NCBI GenBank assembly: GCA_965248445.1
Contig: CBDFJG010000001.1
Location: 558,131-622,130 of the forward strand
Direction of reading: 5' to 3'
Length of the DNA stretch: 64,000 bases
Source: Planctomycetota bacterium
GTDB lineage: Bacteria > Planctomycetota > JAJSAM01 > JAJVHW01
Under the pieces are notes generated by a model that worked only from the letters and a program-made list of their open reading frames with translations, was not told the origin of the DNA and did not search any database. The translations under genes and the position numbers were made by a program. This document shows positions 1,942-24,837 of this stretch, one piece after another. The stretch's first letter is position 1. Every line of letters starts with the position of its first letter.

Positions 1942-3442
1942 TGTAACCGTTCACCCCTTGACAGCGTGTGAGCCTCAGCGTGCGAGGGGCAGCGGGACCA
2001 TGACGGGCGGGTCGGCGCCGGTGAGGTGCGCGGCGACCGAGTCGGCGAGGAAGTCGAAGACTTGGTCGCCACGGCGTCGCAGCGTGGCCGCGGCGGTCAA
2101 CACGCGCTCGGCGAAGCGGAGTCCGCGAGCGGACTGGCTTCCGAAGGAGCCCTTGCGCCAGAGCACCGCTTTGCGGACCGCGCGCTCGGCGGCGTTGTTG
2201 GTCGGACTCACGTCCTGGGTCCGCGCATAGGTGAAGAGGGCGACCACGCGGGGGCGCAGATGGTTGGCCAGAGCCGAGTCGTCGTTCGCGATCAGTCGCT
2301 CGAGCCGTCCGCGCAGCACAGCGGCTTCGCCTTGCAGCCGGTCACGGTCGCCGTGCTCACCGAAGAGCCGGTAGCTGCGCATGACCGACTGCGCGATCAT
2401 GACGCCCTTGTTGCCGAAGCGGCGATGTTCTCGCGGGCCTTCGGCCAGCGCACGGAAGGCGCGCTCGATGTGCGCCCAGCAGAGCTGGCGGCGGGCAAGT
2501 GGGTGTGACTCGTAGGCACCCATCCGGTCGCTGATCACCGTGCCACCGAAGCGCCGCCCGATCAGCCGCCCTTTCGCCTTGGCACTGCGGCGGCGATCGA
2601 TCCCGAAGGCTGTGGCGTGCTCGCTCTCCGCCGCCCACAGCCAGCACACCCGGCCCCGTTCCTTCCACGACGTCTCGTCCACGTTGGCTCGCAGCGACGT
2701 GCGGACTGCCCCGAGGGCTTCGAGGTACGACGAGTGCAGAGCGTCACTGAGCCGACGCTCACAGTCGCTGATCTTGCCCAGCGACATCTTCACACCGAAG
2801 ATCTCACCGAGCAGCCGCTGCGTCTCCCGCACGCTCACGCGGTACACGCCGCGCAGCGCGCCGGCAAGTGTGGTCAGCCGCGGACCGAAGGCCCCGGTCG
2901 GCACGCCATCGGGCAGGACCGCCGTCGTGACCGCACGACAGCGCCGGCACCGCGCCTTGTGCAGCCGGTGCTCCCGCACCGTGACGAGCACGCGCGGGAG
3001 CACCGTCACCTGGTGCCGGTACGGATCGCCGATGCCCTGCTCGAGATCGTCGTGTCCGCACGCGTCGCAGAGGTCGGGACGGTGCTCCTTGGTCTCATCG
3101 ACGTTGGACGGATCCACCAGCTCGCGCGCCGTGCCCTCATGGCCCGGCTGTCCGCCCTGCTTGCGACCGCTACGCGGCCTTCGGCCGCGACGGCGCTTGG
3201 ACCACGCCGGGTCCGACGACGGAGGCCTCGAGCTGTTGCGGGAGTCACGCTTCAGACGCGACTCGAGCTCGTCGATGCGGCGCAGATGCTTCGCTTCGCG
3301 ACGCTCCAACTCCTCGATCCAGGCCAGAAGGCCCTCGACCATCGCCCGCAGATCCTCGTCCTGCCGCTCGCCCACAACATCTTGATCGACCGATGGCCGA
3401 ACGATCTGGATCCTGGCTCGCGACGAAGGGGTGAACGGTTAC
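1942..3442 (-). mobile_element. IS66-family single-ORF insertion sequence (type A) with 17-bp terminal inverted repeats
   Basis: GTAACCGTTCACCCCTT at 1942-1958 and its reverse complement AAGGGGTGAACGGTTAC at 3426-3442 flank the transposase ORF; no clean target-site duplication seen. Confidence 0.8.
1975..3375 (-). CDS. IS66 family transposase (TnpC-like)
   Basis: 466 aa; N-terminal coiled-coil/leucine zipper (LERREAKHLRRIDELESRLKRDSRNSSRPPSSD), CxxC...CxxC zinc-finger region, DDE-region motifs (VDETSW, LCWAHIER, NNAAERAVR) typical of IS66 transposases. Confidence 0.9.
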   Translation of the reverse strand: MGERQDEDLRAMVEGLLAWIEELERREAKHLRRIDELESRLKRDSRNSSRPPSSDPAWSKRRRGRRPRSGRKQGGQPGHEGTARELVDPSNVDETKEHRPDLCDACGHDDLEQGIGDPYRHQVTVLPRVLVTVREHRLHKARCRRCRAVTTAVLPDGVPTGAFGPRLTTLAGALRGVYRVSVRETQRLLGEIFGVKMSLGKISDCERRLSDALHSSYLEALGAVRTSLRANVDETSWKERGRVCWLWAAESEHATAFGIDRRRSAKAKGRLIGRRFGGTVISDRMGAYESHPLARRQLCWAHIERAFRALAEGPREHRRFGNKGVMIAQSVMRSYRLFGEHGDRDRLQGEAAVLRGRLERLIANDDSALANHLRPRVVALFTYARTQDVSPTNNAAERAVRKAVLWRKGSFGSQSARGLRFAERVLTAAATLRRRGDQVFDFLADSVAAHLTGADPPVMVPLPLAR

Positions 3443-3537
3443 CGTTCAGCGGCACCGTCTGGGACGTCAACAACCTCGGGTCGTTCAGCGTCTTCGAGGG
3501 CAACGACAACGGCTACCAGACGCTCTACCAGTAGTCC

Positions 3538-4377
3538 TCAGCCGGCCTGGATGGCGGTGATGCAGGCGACATCCACGATGTCGCCTGCAGTCGCGCCGCG
3601 CGACAGGTCGTTCATGGGACGAGCGAGTCCCTGCAGCACGGGCCCGAGCGCTGCGCCGCCCGCCAGCCGCTGCGTCAGCTTGTAGGCGATGTTCCCGGCA
3701 CCGAGGTCCGGGAACACCAGCACGTTGGCGTTGCCGCCGACCGCGCTTCCGGGCGCCTTGCGGGCCGCTACCGACGGAACCAGCGCAGCGTCTCCCTGCA
3801 ACTCCCCGTCCACCGTGAGCTCCGGCTCGCGACCGCGAATCAGATCGACGGCGCGGCGCACCTTCGCGACGTCGTCATGCTCGGCGCTGCCCTTCGTCGA
3901 GAAGGAGAGCAGTGCCACGCGCGGTTCCTCCTCGAGGAACAGGCGGGCGCTGGTGGCGCCGGCGATCGCGATGTCCGCCAGTTGCCCGGCCGTGGGGTCG
4001 GGCACCACGCCGCAGTCCGTGAACACGAAGGTGCGGCCGTCCGGCAGCGCCATCAGGAAGAAGCTCGAGACCGTGGTGATCCCGGTGGCCATGCCGATGC
4101 CGACGATCGCCGCGCGGACGGTCTCGGCGGTAGTGTGCACGGCGCCTGCGACGCAGCCGTCCGCGTCTCCGGCCCTCACCATCAGCGCGGCGCGAAGCAG
4201 TGGATCGTCGAGCGCGGCGCGCGCGTCCGCGACGGTCATCCCCTTGTGCGCGCGGGCCTCGGCGAGCATCTCCGCGTAGGCGTCGAGGCGATCGGCCGAC
4301 ACGGCCGGCGTCAGCGGCTCGGCCAGGCGCTCGTCTGCGAGCCGCGTCGCCGCTTCGCGCACACGGTCGTCCTCCAT
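3538..4377 (-). CDS. Phosphate acetyl/butyryl-transferase family protein (PTA/PTB-like)
   Basis: 279 aa from ATG at 4377; [24 protein letters not shown] and C-terminal [19 protein letters not shown] resemble PTA/PTB family. The N-terminus may lie further upstream (candidate GTG at 4389). Confidence 0.6.
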
Positions 4378-4442: not shown

Positions 4443-6254
4443 TCACTCGGCGTCTTCCCCGAACGTCTCGACCAGACCGATGTCCACCGTGACCTCGGAG
4501 GCGAGCAGGTACTGCGCGTAAGTCTTGCCCTGCGCGTCGAGCAGCAGCGACAGCGTCCCTCCGCCACCCAGGCTCTCGTGCAGCAGGAAGTTCAGCGCGA
4601 GGAGGTTCGGGACCTCGAATCGCTCGACCTCGCCGTGACAGATGCCCTCGAAACGCTCCTTCACGAACTCTGCAGTCAGGTGACTTCGCATCCACGCGTA
4701 CACCGCCGGAGTGCGCGCGATGACACCGATGTTGCAGGCGTCTCCCTTGTCCCCGGAGCGGGCGAGACAGAGTTCTTCGAGGTGCACCACCGTGCGGCGG
4801 CCGCTGGTCGGGATGCGCGTGCCCGGCATCTGAGGGGTGAAGTCCTCTTGCCCGCCGGCACCCGGCACGGCGGACGACAGTTCCACCTCTCTGTCGCCGA
4901 CCACTACCCGCACGTTGATCACGTCGCGGCCGATGAGCGCCGGCCAGTAGCCGACGACACCCGAAGCGCGCGGCCGACCCTGGTCCGCGAGGTACGTGAT
5001 CCCCGGCACGGTGCCGAGCACACGCGGCACGAGTTGCACGGCAAACTCGTGTTCGAGCTTGTTGCGATCTGCGTCGCGCGCGGCGACCTGGAGCAACACC
5101 TCGGAGGGCGGCAGCGCATCGTCGTCGAGAGGCGGGTGCGTGGAGCTCCACCCGACCAGCGCGGTCTCGGTGTCCTGGTACTGATCGCGGCCGCCGGCCG
5201 AGTCCCAGAACGACTCCGCGACGACCTCCGCCTTGCGCAGGGCGTCGGGGCCGGAGATGAGGAGCCGCCCGAACGCGCGGTAGCCGTGGGAGAAGCTGAT
5301 CGAGACCTTGAACTTCTCCGGTGCCGGGCCACCGCGGGCGCCGGTGACGCGCACGCGGTTCTCCCCCACCTGCTCCAGCTGGATGGAGTCGAAGCGTGCG
5401 ATGCAGTCCGGCGCGATGTATCGCGGGGAGCCCATCTCGTACACGAGTTGTTCGCTCACCGTGTGTACGCTGACCAGTCCGCCTGTGTCCGGATGCTTCG
5501 TCACGACGAACGTCCCGTCGGCGTTCGCCTCGATGAGCGGATAGCCCATGTTCAGGAACGACGGCACGATCTGCCAGTCGGTGAAGTTGCCGCCGGTGCA
5601 CTGCGTACCGCACTCGATGATGTGTCCTGCGATCACCCCCGCGCCGAGGCGGTCCCAGTCGTCCTCCGCCCAGCCGAATTCGTGGATCATCGGGGCGAGC
5701 GTCACAGCGGTGTCGGTGATGCGACCCGCGAGCACAACGTTGGCTCCCATCGAGAGCGCCTGCGACACGGGACGGGCGCCGAGGTACACGTTCGCAGACA
5801 TGACGCTGTTCCGCTCGTCGGAGAGCGGGCGGCCGGTGTCCATGTGGTCGAGCGTCTCGCCGCGGGAGGCGAGCGCGTCGATGTCTTCGAACACGTCGTC
5901 GCCCAACACGACGCCGACGCGCAAATCGTCGGCGATACCGAGTTCCTCGGCCAGTGCAACGAGCGCATCGCGGCAGGCGAGTGGATTCACCCCGCCCGCG
6001 TTGCTGATGATCGTGACGCCCTTCTCGATGCAGAGCGGCAGGACGTCGCGCATCTGGCGCAGGAAGTCCGCGGCATAGCCCTTGGAAGGGTCCCGCTGGC
6101 GCTGCTTCTGCAGGATCGCCATCGTGACCTCGGCCAGGTAGTCCATGACCAGGTAGTCGATGGGCCCGCCCTCGACCTGCCTTTTCGCGGCGGTGGGATC
6201 GTCTCCCCAGAACCCGCCGCAGTTGGCGATGACGATGCGATCTCTACGCGGCAC
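4443..6254 (-). CDS. AtuA-like acyclic terpene utilisation family protein (DUF1446-like)
   Basis: 603 aa; GTG start at 6254 with GGAGG SD 5 nt upstream; N-terminal [14 protein letters not shown] pattern. Assignment from motif recollection, not a search. Confidence 0.6.
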
Positions 6255-10397: not shown

Positions 10398-10609
10398 GGG
10401 GGTGCGGAAGGCGCCGCAAGGTCGAGGCTTGTTCGAAGGAGGGACCCGAGCCTGGCCAGGCTCAGGGGGAACTCAGCGTCAGGGCGCGGGGGGTGCAGCG
10501 CATCCCCCGTGACCGCAGCCCTCCGTAGCGGTCGGAGACCGCGTAGGAGGGAGACACCCGTAGATGCCGCGGGCACGGGGATCGCCCCGCGATCCCCGTG
10601 CGGGCGCAT

Positions 10610-11160: not shown

Positions 11161-12345
11161 TCAGGCCCTTTCGAACAGGACCGCCATGCCCATGCCTCCG
11201 GAGACGCAGAGCGTCGCAATGCCCCTCCGGGCGCCGCGTCTCTTCATCTCGTGAAGCAGCGTGACACAGATTCGCGAGCCCGTCGCGCCGATCGGATGCC
11301 CGAGTGCAATCGCGCCGCCGTTGACGTTCATCCGATCTCCGTCGATGTGCAGATCCCGGTCGCACGCGATCACCTGCGCCGCGAACGCCTCGTTCAGCTC
11401 GATGAGGTCGATGTCGTCGAGCGACAGGCTCTGCCGCTCGAGCAGTTGCCGCACGGCCGGCACCGGGCCGATGCCCATGATGTTGGGGTCGACCCCGGCG
11501 ACGGTCCAGTCGACCACGCGTGCCATCGGCTCCACGCCGAGCGCCTCTGCGCGCTCCGCCGTCAGCACGACCATGGCCGCAGCTCCGTCCGTGATGCCCG
11601 AGGAGTTGCCGGCGTGGACCGTGCCGTCCTTCTTGAAGACGGGCTTCAGCTTCTTCATGCGCTCCGCGGTGCTGTCCGCCCGCGGGTGCTCGTCGGTGTC
11701 GACGATCGTCGGGCCCTTGCGCCCGGGGATCTCGATCGCGAACGACTCGTCCTGCCAGACACCCCGCTCGGTGGCCGCGGCACATCGTGCCTGAGACCGC
11801 TCTGCATAGGCGTCCTGCTCGTCGCGGGAGATGTCGTACTGCTCCGCCAGGTTCTCCGCCGTCTTGCCCATGAGCTGATCGGAGATCGGACACTGGAAGC
11901 CGTCGCGGTACATCCCGTCCACGACCTCGGAGTTGCCGAGGCGGTAGCCGAAGCGCGCGTTCAGCAGGAAGTACGGCGTGTTCGACATCGACTCGGTACC
12001 GCCGACCAGGAGCGTGTCGCGCCGTCCGAGCTGGATCGCATCGTGGGCAAGCGCGACCGCCTTGAGCGACGACGCGCAGGCCTTGTTCACCGTCATGGCG
12101 GGAGAGCTGACGGGAACGCCGGCGCGGACCGAGACCTGCCGCGCCGTGTTGGTGCCGCCGCCGGCCTGCCGGCCGTGGCCGAAGAGCGTCTCCTGGACGT
12201 GCTCCGGCCCAACCCCGGAGCGGCGCAGCGCCTCGGTCGCTGCGGCAACTCCGAGGTCGGCGGGACTGAGCTTGATCAGCCCGCCCCCGAACCTCCCGAT
12301 CGGGGTCCGGACCGCTCCGGCAACGACAACTTCAACTGCGGACAT
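11161..12345 (-). CDS. Acetyl-CoA C-acetyltransferase (thiolase II)
   Basis: ATG at 12345 with GGAGGA SD; MSAVEVVVAGAVRTPIGRFGG, NKACASSLKAV (active-site Cys region), C-terminal GHPIGATGSRI and CVSGGMGMAVL thiolase signatures. Confidence 0.9.
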   Translation of the reverse strand: MSAVEVVVAGAVRTPIGRFGGGLIKLSPADLGVAAATEALRRSGVGPEHVQETLFGHGRQAGGGTNTARQVSVRAGVPVSSPAMTVNKACASSLKAVALAHDAIQLGRRDTLLVGGTESMSNTPYFLLNARFGYRLGNSEVVDGMYRDGFQCPISDQLMGKTAENLAEQYDISRDEQDAYAERSQARCAAATERGVWQDESFAIEIPGRKGPTIVDTDEHPRADSTAERMKKLKPVFKKDGTVHAGNSSGITDGAAAMVVLTAERAEALGVEPMARVVDWTVAGVDPNIMGIGPVPAVRQLLERQSLSLDDIDLIELNEAFAAQVIACDRDLHIDGDRMNVNGGAIALGHPIGATGSRICVTLLHEMKRRGARRGIATLCVSGGMGMAVLFERA

Positions 12346-12546
12346 CGAATTCCTCCGAACTCTTGTCTTGCGAACGCGAGAGCGTACCCGAGGCGGTGTG
12401 ACGGGGGACACGTCGCACGGGGCGTAGCCGCCTCGAAACCGTGGAAAACCAAGGCGTGGGGGCCGGCCGGGCCGGAGGGGCGCTATCCTCAGATGCCGGA
12501 ACAATGGGAACCCGCCAGGGGCTCCTCAACGTCCGACAGTGTGTCC

Positions 12547-12662
12547 GGCTCAACCGCTGACGCGGTTGATGCGGGGCTCGGCGGCGGATGCCGTCGAAGC
12601 ACGGAGGAGCCGCTTGGCGGGCGCGTTGTCTTCTGGCTCACCGGCTGACGCCGGTGATGCGG
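12547..12662. promoter_or_regulatory. Pair of 28-bp motifs, each with a perfect 7-bp palindrome, in a divergent intergenic region
   Basis: GGCTCAaCCGCTGACGCGGTTGATGCGG at 12547-12574 and GGCTCAcCGGCTGACGCCGGTGATGCGG at 12635-12662. Stems CAACCGC/GCGGTTG and CACCGGC/GCCGGTG differ by compensatory changes. Sits between the divergent thiolase and lipoprotein genes. Confidence 0.3.
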
Positions 12663-12900
12663 ATAGCAGCGGACAGATCGAAGAGACAAAACGCGGAGAG
12701 ACGGTTGATGCCCGCCCGAGACGACCACGAACTGAGCCTGGCCGCGCTGCGGCCGGCGTCCCCGATTGGGGACAGAACGGTCGTCTCTCGCCCTCAGCCC
12801 GTTCGGCCCGCGGTTCGCGTCTCTACCCTGCCAATACCAAAACGGCCCATCCCATGGCATGGATGACGCCGCGTCCTTGTTCGTCCGGAGGAGGTCCCCG

Positions 12901-14811
12901 ATGAACCACCGATCTCGCACTGCTGCGCGCCACGCGCGTCCCCTCGCTCTCATCACCGCCTTGGCCGTGCTGGCAGGCTGCTCCGCCGAGCTGACCGACA
13001 CCGGCGCGCTCGAACGGCAGGATGCCGTGCGCACCGTCGTCGCTCAGGATCTGGCCAAGCGGGTCGCTCCGCTGCCGGCTCCCGCGGTTCCGGTCGTCGC
13101 GGCCGGCGCGCTGCCGGTGACGGCGATCGCGGCTTCAGTGGCCGACATCGCACCCCTCGCGGCACCGCAGGAAGACGGCGTCCGCTTCGACGGCGAAGCG
13201 GCCCGCAAGCTCGCTGAGGAGAACGCGCGCTTGCAGGCCGAGCTCCGCCGCACCACGGAAGAGCTCGAGAGCACACGTCAGCGGGAGCGCGACCTGCGCC
13301 TGCCGCCACCGCCCAAGCCCGTGCTCGTCGAGAGCACGGACGGACAGGCGATCGGCGTCGGCGGCGGCCACCCCGTGCCCGACCCGATCCCCGGCACCGT
13401 ACCGCTGGCCGCAGCGCTCGGAGGGACGGTGTACGACCAAGGTCAGCCCGTCGAACGCGAGGTGGTCACCGGAGCCCGTGAGGACTTCGTGATCGTCGAC
13501 GACCGCGAGCCCGAGGTCATTTACGTCGAGGAGCAGGAGCCCGAGGTCATCTACGTCGAGCGCGAGGCGCCCGCCGTCGTGTACGAGCAGGTGGTCTACG
13601 AGACCGAGGTCGTCTACCAGTGGATCCCGTTCGGACACCGCCACTACATCGGCTGCGGACACCACTACTACGGCTGCCACGATCACGCCTGGTACTACAA
13701 CCTCGGCGGTCACTTGGACTTCCATCTGTCCGGGCACGACTGGGATCTGTACTCGCACTTCGGGTACTCGAACTCGTACCACCACGGCCACCACGGCTAC
13801 CGCTACCGCCACCACGGCGGCGGCCACCACTTCGCGTACTACGACCGCCACGACGACCATCACGACGACCACCGCACCGGTCGCCGCAAGGCCTTCAAGC
13901 GCGGCTTCCGCCAGGGCTTCAACGACGGCGTGGCTGCGGGCGGCGGCGTGGGCGGTGTCGGAGGCGGTGGCGCTGTCCCCGTGCGGCGCCGTCTGGGCGA
14001 TACGGGCACCACGGCGACGTCATCCACCGCGACGACACGTCGCGGCCGCGACGGCGGCGGTGCGACTGCCGGGCGGGAGAACCCGCGCGGCCTGAGCCCC
14101 ACCTCCAGCACCCGGAGTTCGACAGGCCGCACTCGGAGCACGACCGGTCAGGCCACCGAGTCGACGTCCCCGCGCCGACGCTTCGGCGTCTCCGGAGAGA
14201 GCACCTCGCCACGCACGACCCGGCGGGGCTCCGCAACGTCAACCGACCGCGGGACCAGCACGAACACGCGCCGTGACCGCGGCGCCGTCGCAACGGAGAA
14301 CCCGGTGACACGCACCCGGCGGGACCGCACGGCCGTGGACACAAACGGGACCACGCGCCGCAGCCAGAACACGCCGACCGTGGTGCGCACGCGCCGCAGT
14401 GGTCAAGCGGGCCAGCCCGGCCTCTCCGGGCGCCGTAACGTGAGCCGTACGACGTCGAACGTGACGCGCACGACCACTCCCACTGTGCGCACACGCACAA
14501 CGGCGCCCACGCGGCGCACGCGCACCGCTCCCACACAGCGGACGCAGCGGACGCCGGAGACCCGCACGCGGACGGCCCCGACCCCTCGGGTCCAGCGCTC
14601 GCCGCCGACCCGAACCCGCCGCGCACCGACGACCCGCCGCGCACCCACGACCCGCTCGGCCCCCACGCGCTCCCCCCAGGTGCGCAGGGCTCCACAGTCA
14701 GCGCCGTCACGCACCCGCCGATCGGCACCGAGGCCCCAGCAAAGAGCGGCACCGAGCACGCGAAACCGGGGCGGTAACGGCGGCGGCGCGAGGCGCCGGC
14801 GCAACCGCTGA
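12901..14811 (+). CDS. Lipoprotein with His/Tyr-rich segment and long Thr/Arg/Pro-rich low-complexity C-terminus
   Basis: ATG at 12901; lipobox LAVLAGCSAE; His-rich block HRHYIGCGHHYYGCHDHAWYY...HHGHHGYRYRHHGGGHHFAYYDRHDDHHDDH; C-terminal repeats RTRTAPT, TRRAPTTR. Whether the C-terminal third is really translated is uncertain in this GC-rich DNA. Confidence 0.55.
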   Translation: MNHRSRTAARHARPLALITALAVLAGCSAELTDTGALERQDAVRTVVAQDLAKRVAPLPAPAVPVVAAGALPVTAIAASVADIAPLAAPQEDGVRFDGEAARKLAEENARLQAELRRTTEELESTRQRERDLRLPPPPKPVLVESTDGQAIGVGGGHPVPDPIPGTVPLAAALGGTVYDQGQPVEREVVTGAREDFVIVDDREPEVIYVEEQEPEVIYVEREAPAVVYEQVVYETEVVYQWIPFGHRHYIGCGHHYYGCHDHAWYYNLGGHLDFHLSGHDWDLYSHFGYSNSYHHGHHGYRYRHHGGGHHFAYYDRHDDHHDDHRTGRRKAFKRGFRQGFNDGVAAGGGVGGVGGGGAVPVRRRLGDTGTTATSSTATTRRGRDGGGATAGRENPRGLSPTSSTRSSTGRTRSTTGQATESTSPRRRFGVSGESTSPRTTRRGSATSTDRGTSTNTRRDRGAVATENPVTRTRRDRTAVDTNGTTRRSQNTPTVVRTRRSGQAGQPGLSGRRNVSRTTSNVTRTTTPTVRTRTTAPTRRTRTAPTQRTQRTPETRTRTAPTPRVQRSPPTRTRRAPTTRRAPTTRSAPTRSPQVRRAPQSAPSRTRRSAPRPQQRAAPSTRNRGGNGGGARRRRNR

Positions 14812-15034
14812 CGCACGATTTATCAGACTGAGAGTGAGCGAGGGTGCCGCCCGGCGGCACCCTCGCGCTCGTTTGCAGAGCACGCTCACAGTCACGATAC
14901 GCGCGGCGGAAGCGCGTCGCGCACCGACCCGTCGGGACGACCTGCAAGACCCCGTTTCTCGCGCTGAGATTCGCCTCAAAACGCGAACTTTCGGGAGCCT
15001 TCACGCAGGCTCGGATTCGTGCCGATGAGAGCGC

Positions 15035-15449: not shown

Positions 15450-17114
15450 AATCGTTCACCAGCCGGGAATCTGAGCGGGCCGTCGTCTGTCTAAGTGCTC
15501 GTACTCGCTAGTACTTGCACCGACAGGAGCGCCGGCCCGATGACGACAGACTGTAGCCCGCAGGGGACCCTCTTCGCGGGCATCTGTGGACGCACCGCGG
15601 TGACGCGCTTCGACGCCGGTACCGTGACGAGCGACGGGGGCGTGCTGCTGCTCGAGCGGGTCGATCGTCGCATCGATCTGCTCTCGCGGTTTGCGCGCTG
15701 CTTCGGGGACCACCGGGACCCGCGTCGGGTCGAGCACACGGTCGGCCAGATGCTGCGTCAGCGGGTCTTCGGGCTGTGCGCGGGCTACGAGGATCTGGTG
15801 GACCACGACCATGTCGGCAAGGACCCGCTGTTTGCCGCGGCGTGCGGCAAGCGCGAGGGTGCTCTGGCCACGCACCCGACGCTCTCGCGGCTCGAGACCA
15901 CGCAGCTCGGCGCCACGGCACAGACGCGCTACGCCAAGATCGAGATGGACCAGGAGCGCGTGGACAGCGTGCTCAGCGACGTCTTCTGCGAGGCCATGGG
16001 GCCGGAGGATCCGGGCCTGCTCGTGCTGGACCTGGACCACTCCGACGTGCGGCTGCACGGCCGGCAGGAGGGCCGCTTCTTCCACGGCTACTACGGGCAC
16101 TACTGCTACCTGCCGCTGTACGTCTTCTGCGGCGAGCACCTCTTGCTCGCTCGGCTCCAGACCGCTGACAGAGATCCCGCGCGCGGAGTCGTGGACGAGC
16201 TCCGTGCGCTGGTCTTACGTCTGCGGCGCCGCTGGCCCCGGGCCAAGGTGCTCGTGCGCGCAGACTCGGGCTTTTGCCGCGAGGAGCTGATGGCCTGGTG
16301 CGAGGCCGCCGGCCACTTCTACCTGCTGGGCATGGCGCGCAATGAGCGCCTTGAGCGACACGTCGAAGACGCGCTCGATGAGGCCGCAGCCCGTGCCGTG
16401 CAGACCGGCCGAGCAGCCCGGGTCTTTCGCGACTTTGCCTGGACCACGCTGGGGAGCTGGAGCCAGAGGCGTCGCGTGGTCGCCAAGGCCGAGCACCTGC
16501 CGGGCGGCAAGCGCAATCCCCGCTTCGTGGTGACCAATCTGCCGCCTCGTAGCTGGAGCAGCAAGCGTCTCTACGAGCAGCTCTACTGCGCCCGGGGCGA
16601 GGCGGAGAATCGCATCAAGGAGCAGCAGCTCGAGCTCTTCGGCACCCGTCTGTCGGTGCACACGATGCAGGGCAACGCCGTGCGGATGGCCATGTCGGCC
16701 ATGGCCTACGTCCTGACCTGTGCGCTGCGACGCATCGGTCTCGCCGGCACCGAGATGGCGCGTGCGCAAGCCGGCACGATCCGCCTGCGGCTGCTCAAGA
16801 TCGGCGCGCTCGTGCGGATCACGACGCGCCGGATCTGGGTCTCGATGTCCTCGTCGTGGCCCTGGCAGCACGTCTTCGAGCGCTGCGCGCAACGACTGCT
16901 GGCATCCCCGAAGCCGACCTGACGTCCCGCCGCGCCGTCCGCCACACCACCGCCCGGCCTACGGTCTGCCCACACCGCAGAATCCGCGCCGTTTCGGCCG
17001 CTCACTCGCGTTGCCCTTGTGGCAACGACGACAGCATCCGCCCTCGCCTGGCCAAGATCTGACCCTGTGGACTCCGAAAGCACCGTCATCGCGACGTCTC
17101 GTGAACAGATGCGG
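15450..17114 (+). mobile_element. IS1380-family insertion sequence (boundaries approximate)
   Basis: Contains an intact IS1380-type transposase; terminal inverted repeats could not be identified by eye. Confidence 0.5.
15495..16922 (+). CDS. IS1380 family DDE transposase
   Basis: 475 aa (likely true start at ATG 15540); GYEDLVDHDHV and C-terminal RGEAENRIKE motifs typical of IS1380 transposases. Confidence 0.85.
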   Translation: MLVLASTCTDRSAGPMTTDCSPQGTLFAGICGRTAVTRFDAGTVTSDGGVLLLERVDRRIDLLSRFARCFGDHRDPRRVEHTVGQMLRQRVFGLCAGYEDLVDHDHVGKDPLFAAACGKREGALATHPTLSRLETTQLGATAQTRYAKIEMDQERVDSVLSDVFCEAMGPEDPGLLVLDLDHSDVRLHGRQEGRFFHGYYGHYCYLPLYVFCGEHLLLARLQTADRDPARGVVDELRALVLRLRRRWPRAKVLVRADSGFCREELMAWCEAAGHFYLLGMARNERLERHVEDALDEAAARAVQTGRAARVFRDFAWTTLGSWSQRRRVVAKAEHLPGGKRNPRFVVTNLPPRSWSSKRLYEQLYCARGEAENRIKEQQLELFGTRLSVHTMQGNAVRMAMSAMAYVLTCALRRIGLAGTEMARAQAGTIRLRLLKIGALVRITTRRIWVSMSSSWPWQHVFERCAQRLLASPKPT

Positions 17115-17386
17115 CTAAGTCCGATGAACAACGCCGCCGAGCGCGCGGTCCGCAAAGCGGTGCTCTGGCGCAAGGGCTCCTTCGGAAGCCAGTCCGCTCG
17201 CGGACTCCGCTTCGCCGAGCGCGTGTTGACCGCCGCGGCCACGCTGCGACGCCGTGGCGACCAAGTCTTCGACTTCCTCGCCGACTCGGTCGCCGCGCAC
17301 CTCACCGGCGCCGACCCGCCCGTCATGGTCCCGCTGCCCGTCGCACGCTGAGGCTCACACGCTGTCAAGGGGTGAACGGTTACCTG
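17115..17386 (+). mobile_element. 3'-terminal remnant of an IS66-A element
   Basis: Encodes the last ~75 aa of the IS66-A transposase (NNAAERAVRKAVLWRKGSFGSQSARGLRFAERVL...) followed by the terminal repeat AAGGGGTGAACGGTTAC at 17370-17386. Confidence 0.7.
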
Positions 17387-17759
17387 GACAACGGGCGAGC
17401 GAGGGTGAAGTGGGGCATGGACTATCGCGTGAAATTCGGTCCCTTCGGATGGTTGCTGGGCCAAACCATGATGAAGTTGATGATGGGCAAGATCCTCGAC
17501 GGCAATCTGAAGGGTCTCGCCAACAGAGTTCGGTCGAACCGGCCTGCGGCTTCATAAGCGGCCGGAGCGGCCCGTTTCTCAGCCCTCCGCGGCGTCCGCG
17601 CCGCTGGAGCCATCGCGGGTTCGGTGTCCTTCTCCGCGTGGTGCTTGGCAGCACACGATGACCACGCCGGCCCTTCACCACCGCAAGGCGGGCCACCGCC
17701 CCTCCCGTATGACACAGGAGGTCGCTCACTAAACTCCAAGACGCGGTGTCTCAGAATCG

Positions 17760-17790
17760 TTGACACGTCCCGGCGATCCGCGGGTAGGAT
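17760..17790 (+). promoter_or_regulatory. Candidate sigma70-like promoter upstream of the kinase gene
   Basis: TTGACA at 17760-17765 and TAGGAT at 17785-17790; the 19-bp spacer is longer than optimal. Confidence 0.2.
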
Positions 17791-17957
17791 CGCGGAGATT
17801 CAGGTGAGAGGTCTGGGCCGAGAGGGGTTCATGCACCAACGCCACCCGGCAGCGGGTCGCGTAACTGGGCGACACTCTGGATCTCCTGCTCGGCATGGGC
17901 GGTCTCCTTGGAGAGTCGAATCTGCGGCGTGCGGTCCGCCGAAGCAAGGAAGGGTTC

Positions 17958-20120
17958 ATGCACCAACGCCACCTAAAGAGAGTAGGGCAACGTCTCGGGA
18001 AGTATCAGCTTCGCAAATTAATCGGGGCGGGTAGCACGGGGGCGATTTACAGAGCTTATGACGAGTCGCTTAGCCGAGAGGTCGCGATCAAAATATTGCT
18101 CAACGAGCGTGCGGAGAATAAGCTATACTTGGAACGCTTTCGATCCGAAGCCAAAGCGGCCGGCCAGCTTAGGGACCAGCATGTCGTTGCGGTCTATGAA
18201 CTCGGAGAAGATCGCGACACACATTTCATTGCGATGGAATTGGTCGATGGCGGGAGTGTCGCTGACGAACTCAAAAAGCGGGGCGCATTCCCGGTCACCG
18301 AAGCCACCCACATCACGGCAGATGCCTGCCGCGGCTTGAGTGCCGCTCATCAGCTTCGACTGGTGCATCGCGACATTAAACCGGAAAACCTTCTGAGAAC
18401 GAAGAACCAGCTAGTAAAGATTGCGGACTTTGGCCTGTCAAAGGGCGATTTCCGGAAGCACAACCAACTCACGATGACCGGCGAAATTCTCGGCACACCT
18501 TACTTCATGAGCCCGGAGCAATGCGAAGGTGCACCGGTAGACGAGCGAAGCGACATTTATTCGCTTGGGGCGACATACTACATGCTGCTCACGGGAGCTT
18601 ACCCCTATTCCGAAGCAACGACAATAATGCAAGTCATGCATTTGCATTGTTCGGACAAGGAGCTCGATCCCTGTCTTGTCCACGCGAAACTTCCTGATCA
18701 ATGCTCTGCAATCGTAAAAAGGGCGACTGCAAGGAGTCCGGACGACCGATACCAAACGGTCGATGACATGCTTGTCGATCTCGAGGAGCTTCTAGCCGAT
18801 CAGGACCGGATCTCCCAAAACACAAAGAAACGTGGAGAGACCAAGAGGAAGCGACAAGTTGTGATGGTATCGATCATTGTGGCCGTGGTGGTTGCCGGCG
18901 CCACCTTGCTCATGTTGAATGCGAATAGAACAACAGGAGAGGCAAGGCATGGCGAACGTTCTCCAGCCAGCCGCCGATTTTCCGGTGCGCTGTCACAAGG
19001 AGTCACCGCGGACACCGTTACCTTTGGCACGACGACGGCCTACTCCGGCACCGCCGGTGATCTTGGCCGCAACATAGTATACGGGATCAGAGCTTGTTTC
19101 AAGGCAGTTAATAAACAGGGAGGAATACACGGGCGGAAGCTGGAGCTTGTTGTGCTCGACGACGGATACGAGCCAGTTAGAGCATTGAACAATATACGGA
19201 TACTCTTTGAAGAGAAACAAATATTTGCAACGATCGGCAATGTTGGAACGCCGACGGCAAAGGCGATCCTCCCCTACACTATTGAGAATCGCTACCTGTT
19301 GTTCGCGCCATTCTCCGGTGCCAAGCTACTTCGGCGGGACCCACCGGACCGATACGTTTTTAATTTTCGCGCGAGCTACACCGAGGAGATTGCCGCCATG
19401 ATGCAATACCTCGTCGAATTGCGTAAGATTGATCCGCAAAAAATCGCGGTCTTTGTCCAGGACGATTCGTTTGGAGACAGTGGTTTTGATGCGGTCGTTC
19501 AAGCATTGAGCGAGCATGAAATTGAGGGGAAGGATGTATTGCGGGTTAAGTATCGACGCAACAGTGTCGAGGTGGAAGATGCCGTGAAGGAGATCGTGCG
19601 CGAAATTGAGAACGTCGATGCTATCGTCATGATTTCGACGTATGAGCCAACTGCCAAATTTGTCAGATCGGTCAAAGACAAGAGTAAGAAAGAAATACAT
19701 TTCGCAGCGGTGTCGTTTGTTGGCAGTCGCGGCTTGGCCGAAGAATTTCGCGAGATGGGCGCACGCTCACGCTATGGTGAGGGCGTCATTGTTACCCAGG
19801 TCGTGCCGCACTATGATGCGAAGGCTAAGGGGGTGAATCGCTATCGACAGTTACTGCGGGAACATTGCCCAGAAGCGCGGCCAAGTTTTGCTTCGTTGGA
19901 GGGTTTTATTGCAGCGGAGTGCCTTGTCAAAGGATTGGAAGCCGTGGGGCCGAACCTGACTACGGAACGTCTTGTCGATGCGCTTGAGAACATCAAGGAT
20001 TTGGATCTCGGAGTGGGGCCGCTCCTCAGCTTTGGACGATTTCGGCATCAGGCTTCAATGAAGATCTGGGGGACAATTCTAGACGACGAAGGCAACTACA
20101 AGAGTCTGAAGCTTGAATAA
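17958..20120 (+). CDS. Receptor-type Ser/Thr protein kinase fused to a periplasmic binding-protein (type 1, LivK-like) sensor domain
   Basis: 720 aa; kinase motifs GAGSTGAIYRA, AIK, HRDIKPENLL, DFGLS, SPEQ; transmembrane helix VVMVSIIVAVVVAGATLLML; C-terminal half resembles branched-chain amino-acid binding proteins. GC content is visibly lower than flanking DNA. Confidence 0.85.
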   Translation: MHQRHLKRVGQRLGKYQLRKLIGAGSTGAIYRAYDESLSREVAIKILLNERAENKLYLERFRSEAKAAGQLRDQHVVAVYELGEDRDTHFIAMELVDGGSVADELKKRGAFPVTEATHITADACRGLSAAHQLRLVHRDIKPENLLRTKNQLVKIADFGLSKGDFRKHNQLTMTGEILGTPYFMSPEQCEGAPVDERSDIYSLGATYYMLLTGAYPYSEATTIMQVMHLHCSDKELDPCLVHAKLPDQCSAIVKRATARSPDDRYQTVDDMLVDLEELLADQDRISQNTKKRGETKRKRQVVMVSIIVAVVVAGATLLMLNANRTTGEARHGERSPASRRFSGALSQGVTADTVTFGTTTAYSGTAGDLGRNIVYGIRACFKAVNKQGGIHGRKLELVVLDDGYEPVRALNNIRILFEEKQIFATIGNVGTPTAKAILPYTIENRYLLFAPFSGAKLLRRDPPDRYVFNFRASYTEEIAAMMQYLVELRKIDPQKIAVFVQDDSFGDSGFDAVVQALSEHEIEGKDVLRVKYRRNSVEVEDAVKEIVREIENVDAIVMISTYEPTAKFVRSVKDKSKKEIHFAAVSFVGSRGLAEEFREMGARSRYGEGVIVTQVVPHYDAKAKGVNRYRQLLREHCPEARPSFASLEGFIAAECLVKGLEAVGPNLTTERLVDALENIKDLDLGVGPLLSFGRFRHQASMKIWGTILDDEGNYKSLKLE

Positions 20121-20267
20121 CGCAAAAACCGAACTCATCGAACGCACGAGCTTCCCGACGAAGTCCGCGGGTTCGGCTTCGAGTTGCTCGCGGTCGCCGT
20201 GCGTCTTGTACTCGCGCACACCCCGCATCAGTGCCTGCGCGATGTCGAGTCCGGCCTCACCGAAGCA
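20120..20267 (-). pseudogene. Short remnant of an IS110-family transposase
   Basis: Minus-strand translation GYACFGEAGLDIAQALMRGVREYKTHGDREQLEAEPADFV parallels the IS110 copy at 24057-24842; abuts the IS1595 end. Confidence 0.3.
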
Positions 20268-20947
20268 TGCATATCCGGTTAATGACCGCGCCCACTACAT
20301 CTTGTGCTAGAAGGGCAGCGGGCTTGCAGGCTCGTCGGCGTAGACCTGTTCGTACGTGCGCGGCGGCGTCTTCGCCGCGATGCCGAGGACCGTCTGGAAC
20401 GCTGCCTGCGGCGTGCGTCTCCTGTTGAACCGGAACGTGAACTCGTCGAGATACCGCTGCAGGTGCTTCTCCGAGACCCGGCCGTGGTGCGTGCCTACGA
20501 GCCAGGTCTTGAGGTTGGAGAAGACCAGGTGGTGCAGGTGCCTCAGGACGTCCGCCTGCGCCGCGCCCATCATCGTGGACTCGATCCCGTGCTCGTAGCC
20601 GAGTTTCTCGACTGCGTCGTAGGTCTCGTGGCCGTCGGTCACGACGAGCGCCCCACGCTCGATGCTGTCCTTGACGAACGCCAGCAGGTGCGGCTTCGAT
20701 GAGGCCGGCACGTGGCGCAGCCGGATGCGTCCGGGCTGTGTGCCTCTCTTCGTCGGACGCACCTCGACCGCGCCGACCACGACGGCCTTGTCTGCCGCGG
20801 TGCGCTCCTCTCGGCCTCGAAACGGCGCTCCGATCAGCGCCTCGTCGACCTCGACGACGCCGAACAACTGCGCGCGCTCCGGCGCGACCATCGCAGATCG
20901 CAGTTTCTGGAGCATCTGGTACGCGGTCTCGTAGCGGGTCAGACCGA
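20268..20947 (-). mobile_element. IS1595-family element, 5'-truncated copy
   Basis: Terminal repeat GCATGCATATCCGGTTAATGACC at 20268-20290; transposase C-terminal 202 aa (ORF 20307..20915) near-identical to the full copy at 24838-25878; identity ends at about 20947. Confidence 0.75.
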
Positions 20948-22270
20948 GCTGTCGCTGGAGCCAGGGTCGAGCGGAACCTGTTCAGCGGCCAGCGGTCCGA
21001 CGACCCCGGCGTCGACATCGACGGGCCGAACGCCGTGGTGCAAAAGAACCGGTTCGTCTACGGCCTCGGCGTCGGCATCCAGGTCGATGCCGAGAACGGT
21101 GGAACGGCCACGGTCTGCAAGAATACGGTCGATTCGATGGCGGGCGACTCCTACATCCTGGTGGAGAACGCGGCGGGCCCCAGGGTCCTGAAGAACGTCT
21201 TCAAGAACGCTTACATTGGCGATAGCTACGACCACGTCATCGACCTCCAGTCCTGTGACGACGCCCTAGTCTCCGGCAACAAGATACTGACGATGAACTA
21301 CTCCATCGAGAGGGGGATCAACGTCGCGGGCGAACGGGCGACGGTAACGAAGAACTGCATCGAGAACGTGAATGGCTACTACTACGACCTGTATTGCATC
21401 TACGTGCAGGGGAACGACGCCGCGATCAGCCGCAACAAGATCCGGATCTGCGGCGCCGGGGAGGAATCCGACACGTATGCGATCTACGTTTCCGGGAACA
21501 CAGCGAGCGTCACGCGAAACGCGATCAACGACATAGCTGGTGGCGGCGACGAGATCTTCGGGGTCTATATCGACGGCGACGACGGCTCCATCGACGGCAA
21601 CCGGATCAGCCACCTGAACGAAGAGTACACGTACGCCATCTACTACACCGGCCACAGGGCCCGGATCGTCAAGAACAGGATCGCGCACGTGATGGCTGAC
21701 GGGGACATCTACGTCCGCGGCGATGACTTCCTGATCGAGAACAACACCGTCAGGGACGGAGCGTACTACTGCACCGGTATCTACACGCGCGGATCCGCCA
21801 CGATGCTCGGGGCGGCGGTGATCCAGCGGAACTCACTGAGCTTTCTCGGGTCGGACGGCATCGACCACGGAGGCAACGGGGTGGTCATCCGCGACAACAA
21901 GCTGAACCACCTGGCGGGGTTCGGGGTGATTGCGGACGGAAACGACAACGTGCTGATCGGTAACAGTGTGTCGGGCACGTACACGGCCGCTTTCCACATC
22001 GATGGCAACGACAACAGCGTGACGGGTTGTGCCGCCAGGGACAGCGACGGAGACGGGTTCAGGATCCAGGGCAACAACAACACGCTGGAGAACTGCACGG
22101 CGTCCAACTGCGCCGCCGAGGGCCTCGACAACAGCGGCACCGACACCAGCGCGATGAACTGCCGGTTCACCGGCTCCCGAATCGACTACGCCGGCAACAA
22201 CAACATGATCGACGACACCGGAACGACGTTCGGGACCGGAAGTGCCGCGACCGCGCCCGAGATCAACTGA
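20948..22270 (+). pseudogene. Right-handed parallel beta-helix repeat protein, 5' end replaced by the IS1595 fragment
   Basis: Repeats of the form hydrophobic-x-x-N-x-hydrophobic and G-N-x-hydrophobic (VTKNCIENV, ISRNKIRI, VTRNAIND, IVKNRIAHV, VIRDNKLNHL); the N-terminal region and signal peptide are missing upstream of 20948. Confidence 0.65.
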
Positions 22271-22394
22271 CCTCGGGACCATCGAGATCGGGACACCCGC
22301 GCGGACGGGTCCTGCGGATACCGAGATGGGATGAGATCCCGTCTTCTCGACCAAGGTTCTTAGAGCGTTGTTGGCGCTGCCCGCCTCGCCTGCG

Positions 22395-23926
22395 GTACCC
22401 GTTCAGGGTATGACGATCCGCGGCCTCAGCGCGTGATCGGGAGCGCGACGAGAGCCGGCGGCGAGCGGTTGTGCGCGAGTGCCGCGCTGACGTCTGCGAG
22501 GTAATCGAAGACGCTCTCGCCACGCTGGCGGAGCGTGGCGGTGACGGTCAGGATGCGCTCGACGAAGCGGAGTCCGCGCTCGCTCTGACTTCCGTGCGTT
22601 GCGCGTCTCCACAGGACCGGCTTGCGCACCGCGCGCTCAGCGGCGTTGTTCGTCGGGGAGACGCCAGGGACGTCGGCGAAGGTCCACAGAGCCTCCGCTC
22701 GGTCGAGCAGATGCCGAGTCGTTCCGCGTACTCGGCGGTGCTTGCTGTCTGCGCCGCGCACGAGCAGCGTCAGGAGTCGGTCCCATGTGAGACGCAGCTC
22801 ACGCCGCATGCGGTCGCGGTCCCCGTGCTCGCCGAAGTGACGCTGAGCTCGCATGACAGCCTGGGCGAGACGCACGGCCTGCTTGCCGAAGCGCCGGCCG
22901 CCGCGCGAGCCCTCGGCCAGCGCTCGAAAGTCCCTCTCGAGATGCGCCCAGCAGATCTGGCGGCGCTCGGTGGGATGCTGGTCGTAAGCGCCCATACGGT
23001 CGGTCACGAGGACGCCCCTGAAGCGCTTGCCCACGAGTCGCCGCATGGCCTTGGCGCTCCTGCGCCGATCGATACGATGGACCGTGGCGTGCTCACAGAC
23101 CGCGCTCCACAGCCAATGCAGCGTGCCACGACGCGACCACGGTGTCTCGTCTACATAGGCGACGCTGCTCGTGCGTACGGCCCCGAGGGCCTCGATGTGC
23201 GCTGAGGAGATGGCTCCCGACACCCGCTCCTCGATCGCACTGACCGTGCCCGGTGACATCGAGACGCCGATGACGTCACGCAACAGACGACTGGTCTCGC
23301 GCCGCGACAGGCGGAAGACGCCGACCAGAGCCGCGGTGAGCGCACAGAGTCGCGGGCCGAAGGGACTCGCCGTCACACCGCTTGGCAGCGAGGCAGTGGA
23401 CGTGGCGCCACAGTCCGTGCACCGTGCCCGGTGCAACCGGTGCTCGGTCACCTGGATCAGCCGTGGCGGGACCTCGAAGACCTGCTGGCGTGTCGGGGCG
23501 CGATCGATCGGGACGAGCACGTCGCTCCCACACGCGCTGCACTCGCGCGGGCGGTGGTCCTCTACGCCATCGACCTCGGACTCGTCCACGAGCTTGCGCG
23601 TCGCCCCTTTGTGGCCGGGCTGCGCACCCTGGCGCTTGTCCGACGGCGGCTTGCGCCGCCGCCGCTTCTTGGACCACGACGGATCCGAGGACGGTGGGCG
23701 CGAGGAGGTGCGGGAGTCCCGGCGAAGACGGCTCTCGAGATCGTCGATCCGTGCCGCCTGCCGCTCGATCACCTCCGCCTGCTCGGCAATCGTCTCGTCC
23801 CGAGCGTCCAGACGACGGGTCAGGCGCTCGACCAGATCACGCAGCTCATCGGTGCCCACATCCGATTCATCGACCGAACGGAAAGCGATCTGGATCCGAG
23901 CTCAGAACCAAGGGCTGAACGGGTAC
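22395..23926 (-). mobile_element. IS66-family single-ORF element (type B), copy 1, with 8-bp target-site duplication
   Basis: Terminal repeats GTACCCGTTCAGGGT (22395-) and AGGGCTGAACGGGTAC (-23926); flanked by direct repeats CGCCTGCG at 22387-22394 and 23927-23934. Confidence 0.9.
22426..23859 (-). CDS. IS66 family transposase
   Basis: 477 aa; identical protein to ORF 29963..31396; coiled-coil N-terminus, zinc-finger cysteines, NNAAERAVRKPVLWRR motif. Confidence 0.9.
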   Translation of the reverse strand: MGTDELRDLVERLTRRLDARDETIAEQAEVIERQAARIDDLESRLRRDSRTSSRPPSSDPSWSKKRRRRKPPSDKRQGAQPGHKGATRKLVDESEVDGVEDHRPRECSACGSDVLVPIDRAPTRQQVFEVPPRLIQVTEHRLHRARCTDCGATSTASLPSGVTASPFGPRLCALTAALVGVFRLSRRETSRLLRDVIGVSMSPGTVSAIEERVSGAISSAHIEALGAVRTSSVAYVDETPWSRRGTLHWLWSAVCEHATVHRIDRRRSAKAMRRLVGKRFRGVLVTDRMGAYDQHPTERRQICWAHLERDFRALAEGSRGGRRFGKQAVRLAQAVMRAQRHFGEHGDRDRMRRELRLTWDRLLTLLVRGADSKHRRVRGTTRHLLDRAEALWTFADVPGVSPTNNAAERAVRKPVLWRRATHGSQSERGLRFVERILTVTATLRQRGESVFDYLADVSAALAHNRSPPALVALPITR

Positions 23927-24837
23927 CGCCTGCGCGCGGGGACCGCGCTCGGCGGGCCGCGAGGACAGGTTGGGTGGTGCGACGCCTTCGCCTGTCGGCT
24001 CGGGCATGAATCCGGGGCGGCGGAGCGCGCGCGAGTTCGCTCGGAAGACTCGTGGCTCATGCGGGCACCTGCGTGGCCGACGTGGCCACGGGTGTGGGCC
24101 GGGGGACGAAGGGCTGTTTGTTTCGAGCCACCCAGTGGACGGCGACCAGGAGCTTTCGCATGGACGCGACGAGGGCGACCTTCGGGAGCTTGCCCTGGGA
24201 CCGAAGCCGTTCGTAGAAGGCGCGCAGCCAGGGGTTCCTGCGCACCGCGGTCAGGACGGGCATCCACAGGGCCCTGCGCAGCCGGGCGTGCCCGATGCGG
24301 GTGATGGCGGCGCGTTGGCCCTGGTTGCGTCCGGACTGCTTGAGTGCCGGGACGACCCCGATGTATGACGCCAGCGCCTTGGCGTCGCGGAAACGAGTGA
24401 TGTCGCCCAGCTCCGCGACGAGCCGCGCGGCGGTCTGTGGCCCGATGCCGTCGATGGTCGTGAGGAGCTTGCCGACCTCGTGGTGCTCCAGGGTTCCCCC
24501 GATCAGCTTCTCCAAGTCGCGAAGGCGCCGGCGCAGCAAGTCCAGATCCTCGCAGGCGTACCGGACCTGAGTGCGATAGGCCTCGGCGTGGTGGCGGCCC
24601 ACGGACGACTTGGCTGCACGGACCAGGTCTTGGGCAAGCTGCCGCCCGACTCGGTGACGTCCGTCGTAACGGAGCGCGGCGAGTCGCTTGACCGAGACAC
24701 CCACAAAGGCCTGCGCGGTGGGATGGCGGTTGAGCAGCGCCGTGGCGAGTTCGCTGTCGAGGGTGCGGACGTGGCGTGTGAACTCCGGGAAACCCAGGTC
24801 CACCAAGCGGTGAAGCCGGCGGACCCGGTCTCCAAAG

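Follow-up and report, generated by a model that had tools for sequence, protein, structure and literature searches.

A covarying TGAC-loop hairpin in two intergenic clusters of Planctomycetota: a candidate REP-like palindromic repeat

A hairpin cluster between the thiolase and lipoprotein genes

The 64-kb stretch of Planctomycetota DNA analysed here, hereafter the window, contains a 555-bp non-coding region (12346-12900) in which a short palindromic hairpin is present in several copies. This region separates a thiolase (acetyl-CoA acetyltransferase) gene on the minus strand (11161-12345; Thiolase_N 4e-83, Thiolase_C 2e-49) from a fast-evolving lipoprotein gene on the plus strand (12901-14811), whose product combines a lipobox (LAGC), a His/Tyr-rich middle and an Arg/Thr/Ser-rich tail. 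A previous sequence-only reading had placed two hairpin motifs here, between a thiolase gene and a His-rich lipoprotein gene transcribed in opposite directions, and the flanking genes are as it described them. The two motifs, M1 (GGCTCAACCGCTGACGCGGTTGATGCGG, 12547-12574) and M2 (GGCTCACCGGCTGACGCCGGTGATGCGG, 12635-12662), both read on the plus strand, indeed have the same flanks and the same TGAC loop, and we add a third, diverged copy, M3 (12575-12602, plus strand), which abuts M1.

Taken with its outer helix, M1 spans positions 12544-12574 (TCCGGC TCAACCGC TGAC GCGGTTGA TGCGG) and consists of a perfect 8-bp stem closed by the TGAC loop and followed, past a 2x2 mismatch, by an outer helix CCG/CGG. 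It scores 45.8 bits with R1, a covariance model built from the three window copies, and its fold has a predicted energy of -18.0 kcal/mol (z -4.1). M2 (12632-12662, TCTGGC TCACCGGC TGAC GCCGGTGA TGCGG) scores 46.2 bits, and its outer helix is CUG/CGG (3 bp including one G-U, written UCUG/CGGA). Because it contains a U-G pair, this outer helix forms on the plus strand only: the fold of M2 reaches -21.3 kcal/mol with the outer helix on the plus strand and -18.6 kcal/mol without it on the minus strand. M3 (GGC TCGGCGGC GGAT GCCGTCGA AGCAC, or GGCTCG GCGGC GGAT GCCGT CGAAGCAC when written as flanks, stem and loop) has an 8-bp stem including one G-U pair and a GGAU loop, in the same register as M1 (-16.9 kcal/mol, z -3.9), and is predicted to form the hairpin in folds of the surrounding sequence too. 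Apart from M1 and M2 themselves, no other 27-mer of the window is both identical to one of them at 18/27 positions or more and paired in register at 8/8 positions. The repeat unit can be written as 31 nucleotides (nt), TCYGGCTCA...TGATGCGG, with a 3-bp outer helix beyond the 2x2 mismatch.

The stems, previously given as 7 bp, are 8 bp long in both M1 and M2. The two (TCAACCGC/GCGGTTGA and TCACCGGC/GCCGGTGA) differ at two pairs, both of them compensated (A-T to C-G and C-G to G-C), and the earlier remark that the stem differences preserve complementarity is borne out; M3 adds more compensatory changes relative to M1 and M2. Over the three window copies, 97% of the stem cells are paired and four pair positions are altered on both sides, and pairing falls to 26-63% when the 3' partner columns are slid by one to three positions.

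The resemblance between M1 and M2 exceeds chance, since they share loop and flanks at a spacing of only 88 nt, their loop is rare (of the 31 perfect hairpins in the window whose stems reach 8 bp or more, only M1 and M2 have TGAC or GTCA as their loop), and their single-hairpin folds lie about four standard deviations below those of shuffled sequences. The 88-nt spacing does not mark a tandem duplication of a longer segment, as similarity does not rise above background beyond the 31-nt unit. All three copies are co-oriented and lie within 120 nt, and the covariance model finds no other in the 64 kb (next best 16 bits, against 30-46 bits for the copies).

Two shorter matches deserve mention. A possible truncated copy on the plus strand (12697-12711, GAGACGGTTGATGC), which is weak evidence when taken alone, retains a loop remnant and the 3' arm without the 5' arm and shares CGGTTGATGC (12702-12711) exactly with M1. 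Further away, a 19-nt plus-strand match with one mismatch (14796-14814, CCGGCgCAACCGCTGACGC; E 0.028 within the window) may be the converse, a remnant of the 5' arm and loop without the 3' arm. It overlaps the stop codon of the lipoprotein gene, the TGA of the loop being the stop codon TGA itself, and could be a remnant or a chance match.

A second cluster in a related genome

Neighbourhoods of the thiolase gene in related genomes were obtained via thiolase homologs, which are 86% identical to that of the window in L021/L064, 81-82% in L054, L055 and L056/L057, and 78-81% in L058-L063. The covariance model identified four full copies of the hairpin in L056/L057, at positions 5635-5867 of L057 (of which 13 kb of contig was sampled) and on the gene-sense strand, and a fifth, truncated copy was recognized by BLAST and by reading the sequence; its 11 nt comprise the 5' arm and the loop, and it is cut immediately after the loop. 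One of the L057 copies has a 20-nt core (5843-5862), TCAACCGCTGACGCGGTTGA, identical to that of M1 (E 3.9e-7 between the two short regions). Similarity between the two cluster regions is confined to the hairpin, and the thiolases of the window and L057 are 81% identical.

The two clusters occupy different sites of the same string of genes, which runs on one strand in the order lipoprotein, DUF2203, rubrerythrin, DUF5679. The window lipoprotein has its L057 ortholog in a protein of 739 residues (tblastn, 42% over about 410 residues), and a DUF2203 gene comes next in both genomes. The window hairpins are located upstream of the lipoprotein gene. In L057 the cluster begins 10 nt past the stop codon of the rubrerythrin gene, within an 865-nt gap (98-407 nt in relatives), and more than 600 nt separate it from the next start codon; the 491 nt preceding the lipoprotein ortholog of L057 contain no copy. 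A related genome therefore carries a cluster of this hairpin, down to an identical core of 20 nt, at another intergenic site, which does not fit the earlier suggestion of an operator or regulatory hairpin specific to the thiolase-lipoprotein promoter region.

Two stem variants coexist in the L057 cluster, CCGC/GCGG and CGGC/GCCG, and one copy carries arms of different variants (TCAACCGC...GCCGTTGA), giving a C-C mismatch beneath a TCAC loop. Truncated and mismatched-arm copies are as expected of repeats that decay or recombine. Two further features lie beside the cluster on the minus strand (5479-5583 and about 5268-5430). One is an inverted repeat of about 100 nt, whose sub-threshold, miRNA-like Rfam match is due to chance of shape. 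The other, an open stretch ending in ...VEIAFPQLDVHLDQP reads like the C-terminus of an MscS-type channel, which Pfam did not confirm. The 865-nt gap may be suggested to be the debris of a rearrangement.

Covariation, strand asymmetry and period-3 variation

The three window copies and the four full L057 copies (numbered with an H below) form a set of seven, in which 55 of the 56 stem cells pair and three pair positions are doubly changed; sliding the partner columns by one to three positions destroys the pairing. The stem consensus is TCAACSGC/GCSGTTGA, and the stems covary around a conserved loop and conserved closing pairs. Flanks are variable in this alignment, reading GGC, GGT, CGT or TGT on the 5' side and TGCGG, CACGG, CACCGG or GACGA on the 3' side. 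Four wobble pairs occur, one in M3, one in the outer helix of M2 and two in outer helices of L057 copies, and all of them are G-U on the gene-sense strand.

Variation among the seven copies also has a period of three. Over the 27-nt unit (window 12547-12601 and 12635-12661; L057 5630-5874, minus strand), all nine third-codon positions vary, compared with 5 of the 18 others (Fisher p 4e-4, or 0.0065 with paired columns merged). The symmetry of the palindrome halves the number of independent positions, so that p is about 0.02-0.06 when the three frames are allowed for. The frame is GGC TCA ACC GCT GAC GCG GTT GAT GCG, and the peptides read GSTADAVDA, GSPADAGDA, GSAADAVEA and xSTADAVDT. This pattern might mean that the unit is or was translated, the palindrome then being under both pairing and coding constraint.

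Transcription signals around the hairpins

The sequence-only reading had called the intergenic region a divergent promoter region. It does lie between divergent genes, although the term promoter applies only loosely: some 200 bp separate the first hairpin from the thiolase start and some 240 bp the last one from the lipoprotein start, and a consensus scan of positions 12250-13000 found no sigma-70-like promoter, with the reservation that this consensus may not be that of the lineage. A -10-like motif facing the lipoprotein gene (12482-12489, plus strand, GCTATCCT) was missed by that scan. Motifs of the same type (gctatcct, gctatgct, gttatgct) also precede the divergent gene of L021, L054 and L056, and GCTATCCT, GCTATGCT and GTTATGCT recur upstream of the gene diverging from, or located beside, the thiolase gene (about 5872-5879 in L021, 3484-3491 in L054 and 4960-4967 in L056). 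The motif looks like a -10 element typical of this lineage. Its position in L021, 8 nt ahead of a GTG start codon, points to a leaderless mRNA.

If GCTATCCT is a promoter, the hairpins would lie within a leader of about 405 nt. This putative leader is predicted to be strongly structured (z -4.0). Should the plus strand be transcribed, both the minimum free energy and the centroid folds predict a three-way junction (12511-12622) in which a long helix, pairing 12511-12527 with 12604-12622, closes around M1 and M3; this helix found no comparative support.

A short upstream open reading frame (ORF; window 12855-12904) begins at a conserved [A/G]TGGCA, and its TGA overlaps the start codon of the lipoprotein gene (ATGA). 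The same arrangement is found in L056 (about 4509-4577, minus strand), and the upstream ORF of L054 (about 3424-3481, minus strand) stops 2 nt ahead of the start codon. This ORF may encode a translationally coupled leader peptide, or may mark the true promoter-proximal region. We rejected a sigma-54 promoter at ATGGCA, for which the GG-N10-GC spacing holds in the window only.

The 555-bp region shows neither codon-position GC bias nor a codon-usage signal, and its ORFs have no Pfam match. For ORF 12539-12904, a full HMMER scan of 1.84 billion representatives returned no homolog. Rfam contains no family matching either hairpin cluster: permissive scans gave only sub-threshold chance matches, and the single gathering-level hit of the window is a tRNA. 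A blastn search of the region against plasmids gave no match.

Distribution among relatives and in sequence collections

The hairpin is absent from the six other related neighbourhoods (L021/L064, L054, L055, L058-L063), including the regions upstream of the lipoprotein gene and the rubrerythrin gaps, and no copy is found upstream of the lipoprotein ortholog or the thiolase gene in L057, L064, L054, L055 and L058-L063. The intergenic regions of these relatives are too diverged for alignment. Absence from orthologous regions is what the sequence-only reading had itself named as evidence against its proposal, so that by its own standard the operator interpretation is refuted; the TetR/GntR-type regulator that it suggested looking for nearby is missing as well, no regulator gene of this or another type being present among the neighbouring genes.

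It had also proposed a search for further copies. The pattern GGCTCA-N5-TGAC-N5-TGATGCGG has 20 matches in a collection with one genome for each of 185,579 species and 31 in a metagenome collection, which is about the chance level; the complementarity of the arms in these matches ranges from 0 to 4 of 5 and never reaches 5, and the flanks proved to be genome-specific. The core TCAACSGCTGACGCSGTTGA has no match in viral contigs, and a literature search found no paper on the hairpin core sequence. The copies known thus amount to one cluster in the 64-kb window and one in the 13 kb of the L057 contig.

A proposed REP-like repeat and its alternatives

We propose, with moderate confidence, that these motifs are a lineage-specific palindromic repeat of a high-GC bacterium, similar to repetitive extragenic palindromic (REP) sequences and arranged in head-to-tail clusters. 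The unit of such a family, about 31 nt long, would carry the 4-nt TGAC loop on an 8-bp stem, with a small internal mismatch separating this stem from a short outer helix. Its copies would sit head-to-tail in small clusters within long non-coding gaps, at sites that differ between genomes, and duplication, truncation and exchange of arms would locally multiply and degrade them; the family is presumably dispersed genome-wide in many copies. This proposal follows from the presence of the same hairpin in two genomes with thiolases of only 81% identity, at intergenic sites that are not orthologous, from its patchy presence among relatives, from the signs of local amplification, truncation and arm exchange, from the lack of a coding signal and of a nearby regulator, and from an 8-bp stem and 4-nt loop that match the architecture of CGTC-type REPs. 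Pairing could be maintained by selection on the folded single strand, either in the sense transcript or in single-stranded DNA during the spread of the repeat, or else by arm-to-arm template correction in quasi-palindromes, two possibilities that the data do not separate. We count in favour of the REP-like proposal the wobble pairs, G-U on the sense strand, and the strand-specific outer helix of M2. Where transcribed, the hairpins would influence mRNA decay or the formation of 3' ends simply as stable stem-loops of a generic kind, and not as a gene-specific switch.

Several observations weigh against this proposal. Dispersal rests on two clusters in two genomes, both located in the lipoprotein-DUF2203-rubrerythrin-DUF5679 string, which could mean a function tied to this locus. 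The seven-copy alignment contains no GTAG/CTAC tag, CGTC in only one of the seven copies and no inverted dimers, and there is no RAYT/Y1 transposase among about 50 ORFs of the window. Since the element fits neither tagged superfamily, we do not file the element in any named REP family. The position of the window cluster, between divergent genes, is unusual for REPs, and the period-3 variation, which is not predicted for plain non-coding repeats, is left unexplained.

The location of both clusters on the sense strand of one co-directional gene string could instead indicate a locus-tied, cis-acting RNA element on the transcript running from the lipoprotein to the DUF5679 gene, located in the leader in the window genome and between cistrons in L057. 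An RNA-binding protein or a nuclease could recognize the conserved C-UGAC-G loop of such an element, or the element could provide differential mRNA stability within the operon; as a variant, the clusters could form a multi-hairpin RNA that titrates a protein. The conservation of the loop and closing pairs amid covarying stems fits this explanation, as do the wobbles that are G-U on the sense strand only, the outer helix of M2 restricted to the same strand, the unusually structured putative leader and the -10-like motif upstream of the hairpins. Moreover, that a cluster turned up in a 13-kb sample of a second genome requires that copies be numerous or that the element be tied to the locus. We nevertheless regard this explanation as unlikely, though still a serious competitor, since the hairpin is missing from the same string in six other relatives, its position differs between the two carriers, truncated and mismatched copies are present, Rfam provides no match and transcription is only putative; a second possible promoter or upstream-ORF start (about 12830-12855) is also located downstream of the hairpins. 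A bolder form, which we consider speculative and quite unlikely, holds that the hairpins are not selfish repeats but modules of an undescribed Planctomycetota structured RNA with a conserved C-UGAC-G tetraloop and a dedicated RNA-binding factor, for which the 49-residue zinc-ribbon protein DUF5679 would be a candidate. If the RNA-element explanation holds, the hairpins would offer an entry point to a riboregulatory system around the rubrerythrin gene cluster.

Translation of the unit raises another alternative, namely an element compatible with coding or what is left of a gene for a peptide repeat, present either as decayed, frameshifted pieces or as a palindromic element adapted in frame inside genes, as in Rickettsia palindromic elements (RPE). 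The 27-nt unit would encode G-S-[T/P/A]-A-[D/H]-A-[V/G]-[D/E]-[A/T], with the excess of third-position variation described above, and the stem pairs 3/18 and 6/15 join third positions with third positions, so that compensatory changes there are synonymous. Furthermore, M3 and M2 are in frame with ORF 12539-12904, which ends on the lipoprotein start (ATGA), and H3-H5 of L057 share one frame. On the other hand, M1 is shifted by one base relative to the frame of M3 and M2, no start codon opens the L057 frame, a chimeric query of the translated hairpins matched nothing, and the region shows neither a GC bias at third codon positions nor a codon-usage signal or Pfam match; with the ORF lacking any homolog and the period-3 signal weakened by palindrome symmetry, we find a coding origin improbable. 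A double-stranded DNA operator, in which a dimeric transcription factor would bind TCAAC-N10-GTTGA and control the thiolase gene, the lipoprotein gene or both, appears very improbable. The conserved outer half-sites (TCA...TGA) and the presence of two or three sites between divergent genes agree with an operator, and the core identity across two genomes implies sequence-specific recognition by something. However, the arms covary, which recognition of bases by a protein does not require; the sites are distant from both start codons, with no consensus promoter to overlap, and are missing from all orthologous promoter regions examined; no regulator domain is found in the neighbouring genes; and the L057 cluster of five follows a stop codon, more than 600 nt before the next start.

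If the REP-like proposal is correct, it adds an untagged palindromic repeat family that clusters head-to-tail, from a poorly studied high-GC lineage, and bears on how REP-like sequences originate and spread without a RAYT transposase. It also illustrates that covarying intergenic hairpins need not regulate adjacent genes. The practical value is modest: such repeats flag spots prone to rearrangement, and gene callers and motif finders can be misled by them.

Comparison with known repeats and regulatory elements

REP families have stems of 5-13 bp and small loops, are often plausibly transcribed downstream of genes, and comprise from under 20 to thousands of units spread unevenly among species, small families having 20-100 units (Di Nocera et al., 2013, PMC3733652). 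The GTAG-tagged REP/BIME sequences of Enterobacteria and Pseudomonas, mobilised by RAYT, resemble the present element in being short (20-40 nt), imperfect, non-coding palindromes with an internal mismatch and a small loop, in their compensated stem changes, and in being clustered, probably transcribed and patchily distributed among related genomes. In contrast, GTAG is lacking here, all copies lie head-to-tail on one strand instead of in inverted pairs (REPIN/BIME), and two clusters are known against tens to thousands of dispersed copies. No RAYT gene is present in the window, where about 50 ORFs have no match to Y1_Tnp and the transposases found belong only to the IS4-like, IS66, IS110 and IS1595 types.

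In family 1 of the CGTC REPs, to which Neisseria dRS3 and Rickettsia RPE-6 belong, the stem is of exactly 8 bp, the loop of 4 nt and the tail of 3 nt, and no dedicated transposase is known; CGTC REPs mostly form head-to-head dimers and are rarely clustered (PMC3733652). The present hairpin shares the 8-bp stem, the 4-nt loop and a short unpaired tail, its minus strand reading tag, TCAACSGC, GTCA, GCSGTTGA and tail. Yet the minus-strand tag is CGCA in M1 and M2, CGTG in H1 and GGTG in H3 and H4, with CGTC only in H5; the stem starts with TC...GA in all copies instead of the near-invariant AT, and the tail is GCC, ACC, ACG or ACA instead of CCA. RPE and intragenic REPs likewise are palindromic repeats that stay open in a frame, and variation falls here on third-codon positions; the likeness goes no further, as no copy was found within an intact gene and the frame differs between copies. 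The present 31-nt unit is much shorter than RPE-1 elements.

TetR/GntR-type operators similarly form intergenic inverted repeats of about 20 bp with several sites side by side, and differ from the present case in its covarying arms, in the orthologous promoters without sites, in the lack of an adjacent regulator and in an L057 cluster placed after a stop codon. Titrating RNAs of the CsrB/RsmZ type share with the clusters the repetition of stem-loops in which the loop is conserved and the stem variable, a long non-coding stretch and local duplication. Their loop motif is GGA, however, compared with UGAC here, and the present element has no Rfam match and neither defined transcript ends nor a known partner protein.

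Other candidates were considered and rejected. A CRISPR array is incompatible with copies that are 67-85% identical over 27 nt and start 28 and 60 nt apart, M1 and M3 abutting without a spacer, and the ORFs scanned have no cas-like domain. The hairpins lack the U tract of intrinsic terminators, and the likely terminators of this genome have 13-14-bp stems and 3-nt loops (for example 14838-14866). For an integron attC site, the unit is far too short and agrees with R'' but not with R'; dif/Xer sites are single-copy; the ANTAR dual hexaloop differs in loop size and sequence; and the repeats of type III toxin-antitoxin systems are set aside as no toxin gene was found.

Other features of the window

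The lipoprotein, of highly unusual composition, has no Pfam match and no homolog by word-indexed search, and resembles its L057 ortholog over the first 410 or so residues only. Its tail, following the His/Tyr block, consists of about 220 residues of low complexity rich in Arg, Thr and Ser, with a strong positive AT skew of 0.4-0.5 in the DNA.

Four perfect GC-rich hairpins of 13-14 bp with 3-nt loops occur in the window (3561-3589, 10573-10601, 14838-14866 and 62353-62383). The one at 14838 begins 27 nt past the stop codon of the lipoprotein gene and is followed by TCGTTTG. These hairpins look like the terminators of this genome, distinct from the 8-bp/TGAC family.

Insertion sequences (IS) are dense at positions 1975-3375 and 15495-31467. 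An IS4-like DDE transposase gene (15495-16922) occupies the place of the rubrerythrin and DUF5679 genes of relatives. Four IS66-family genes include an exact 1.5-kb duplicate (22395-23929 and 29932-31467), IS110-family genes are split by an IS1595-type element (24057-27674), and inverted duplicates pair 20264-20960 with 25189-25880 and 1943-2208 with 17118-17383. Beyond this stretch, a truncated Ser/Thr kinase N-terminal fragment (ORF of 187 aa, 33583-34146) lies near the only tRNA gene of the window, tRNA-Arg ACG (34809-34885), and positions 39286-46757 hold an arginine-biosynthesis-like cluster with genes for an argininosuccinate synthase, a semialdehyde dehydrogenase, a class-III aminotransferase, an amino-acid kinase and an M20 peptidase.

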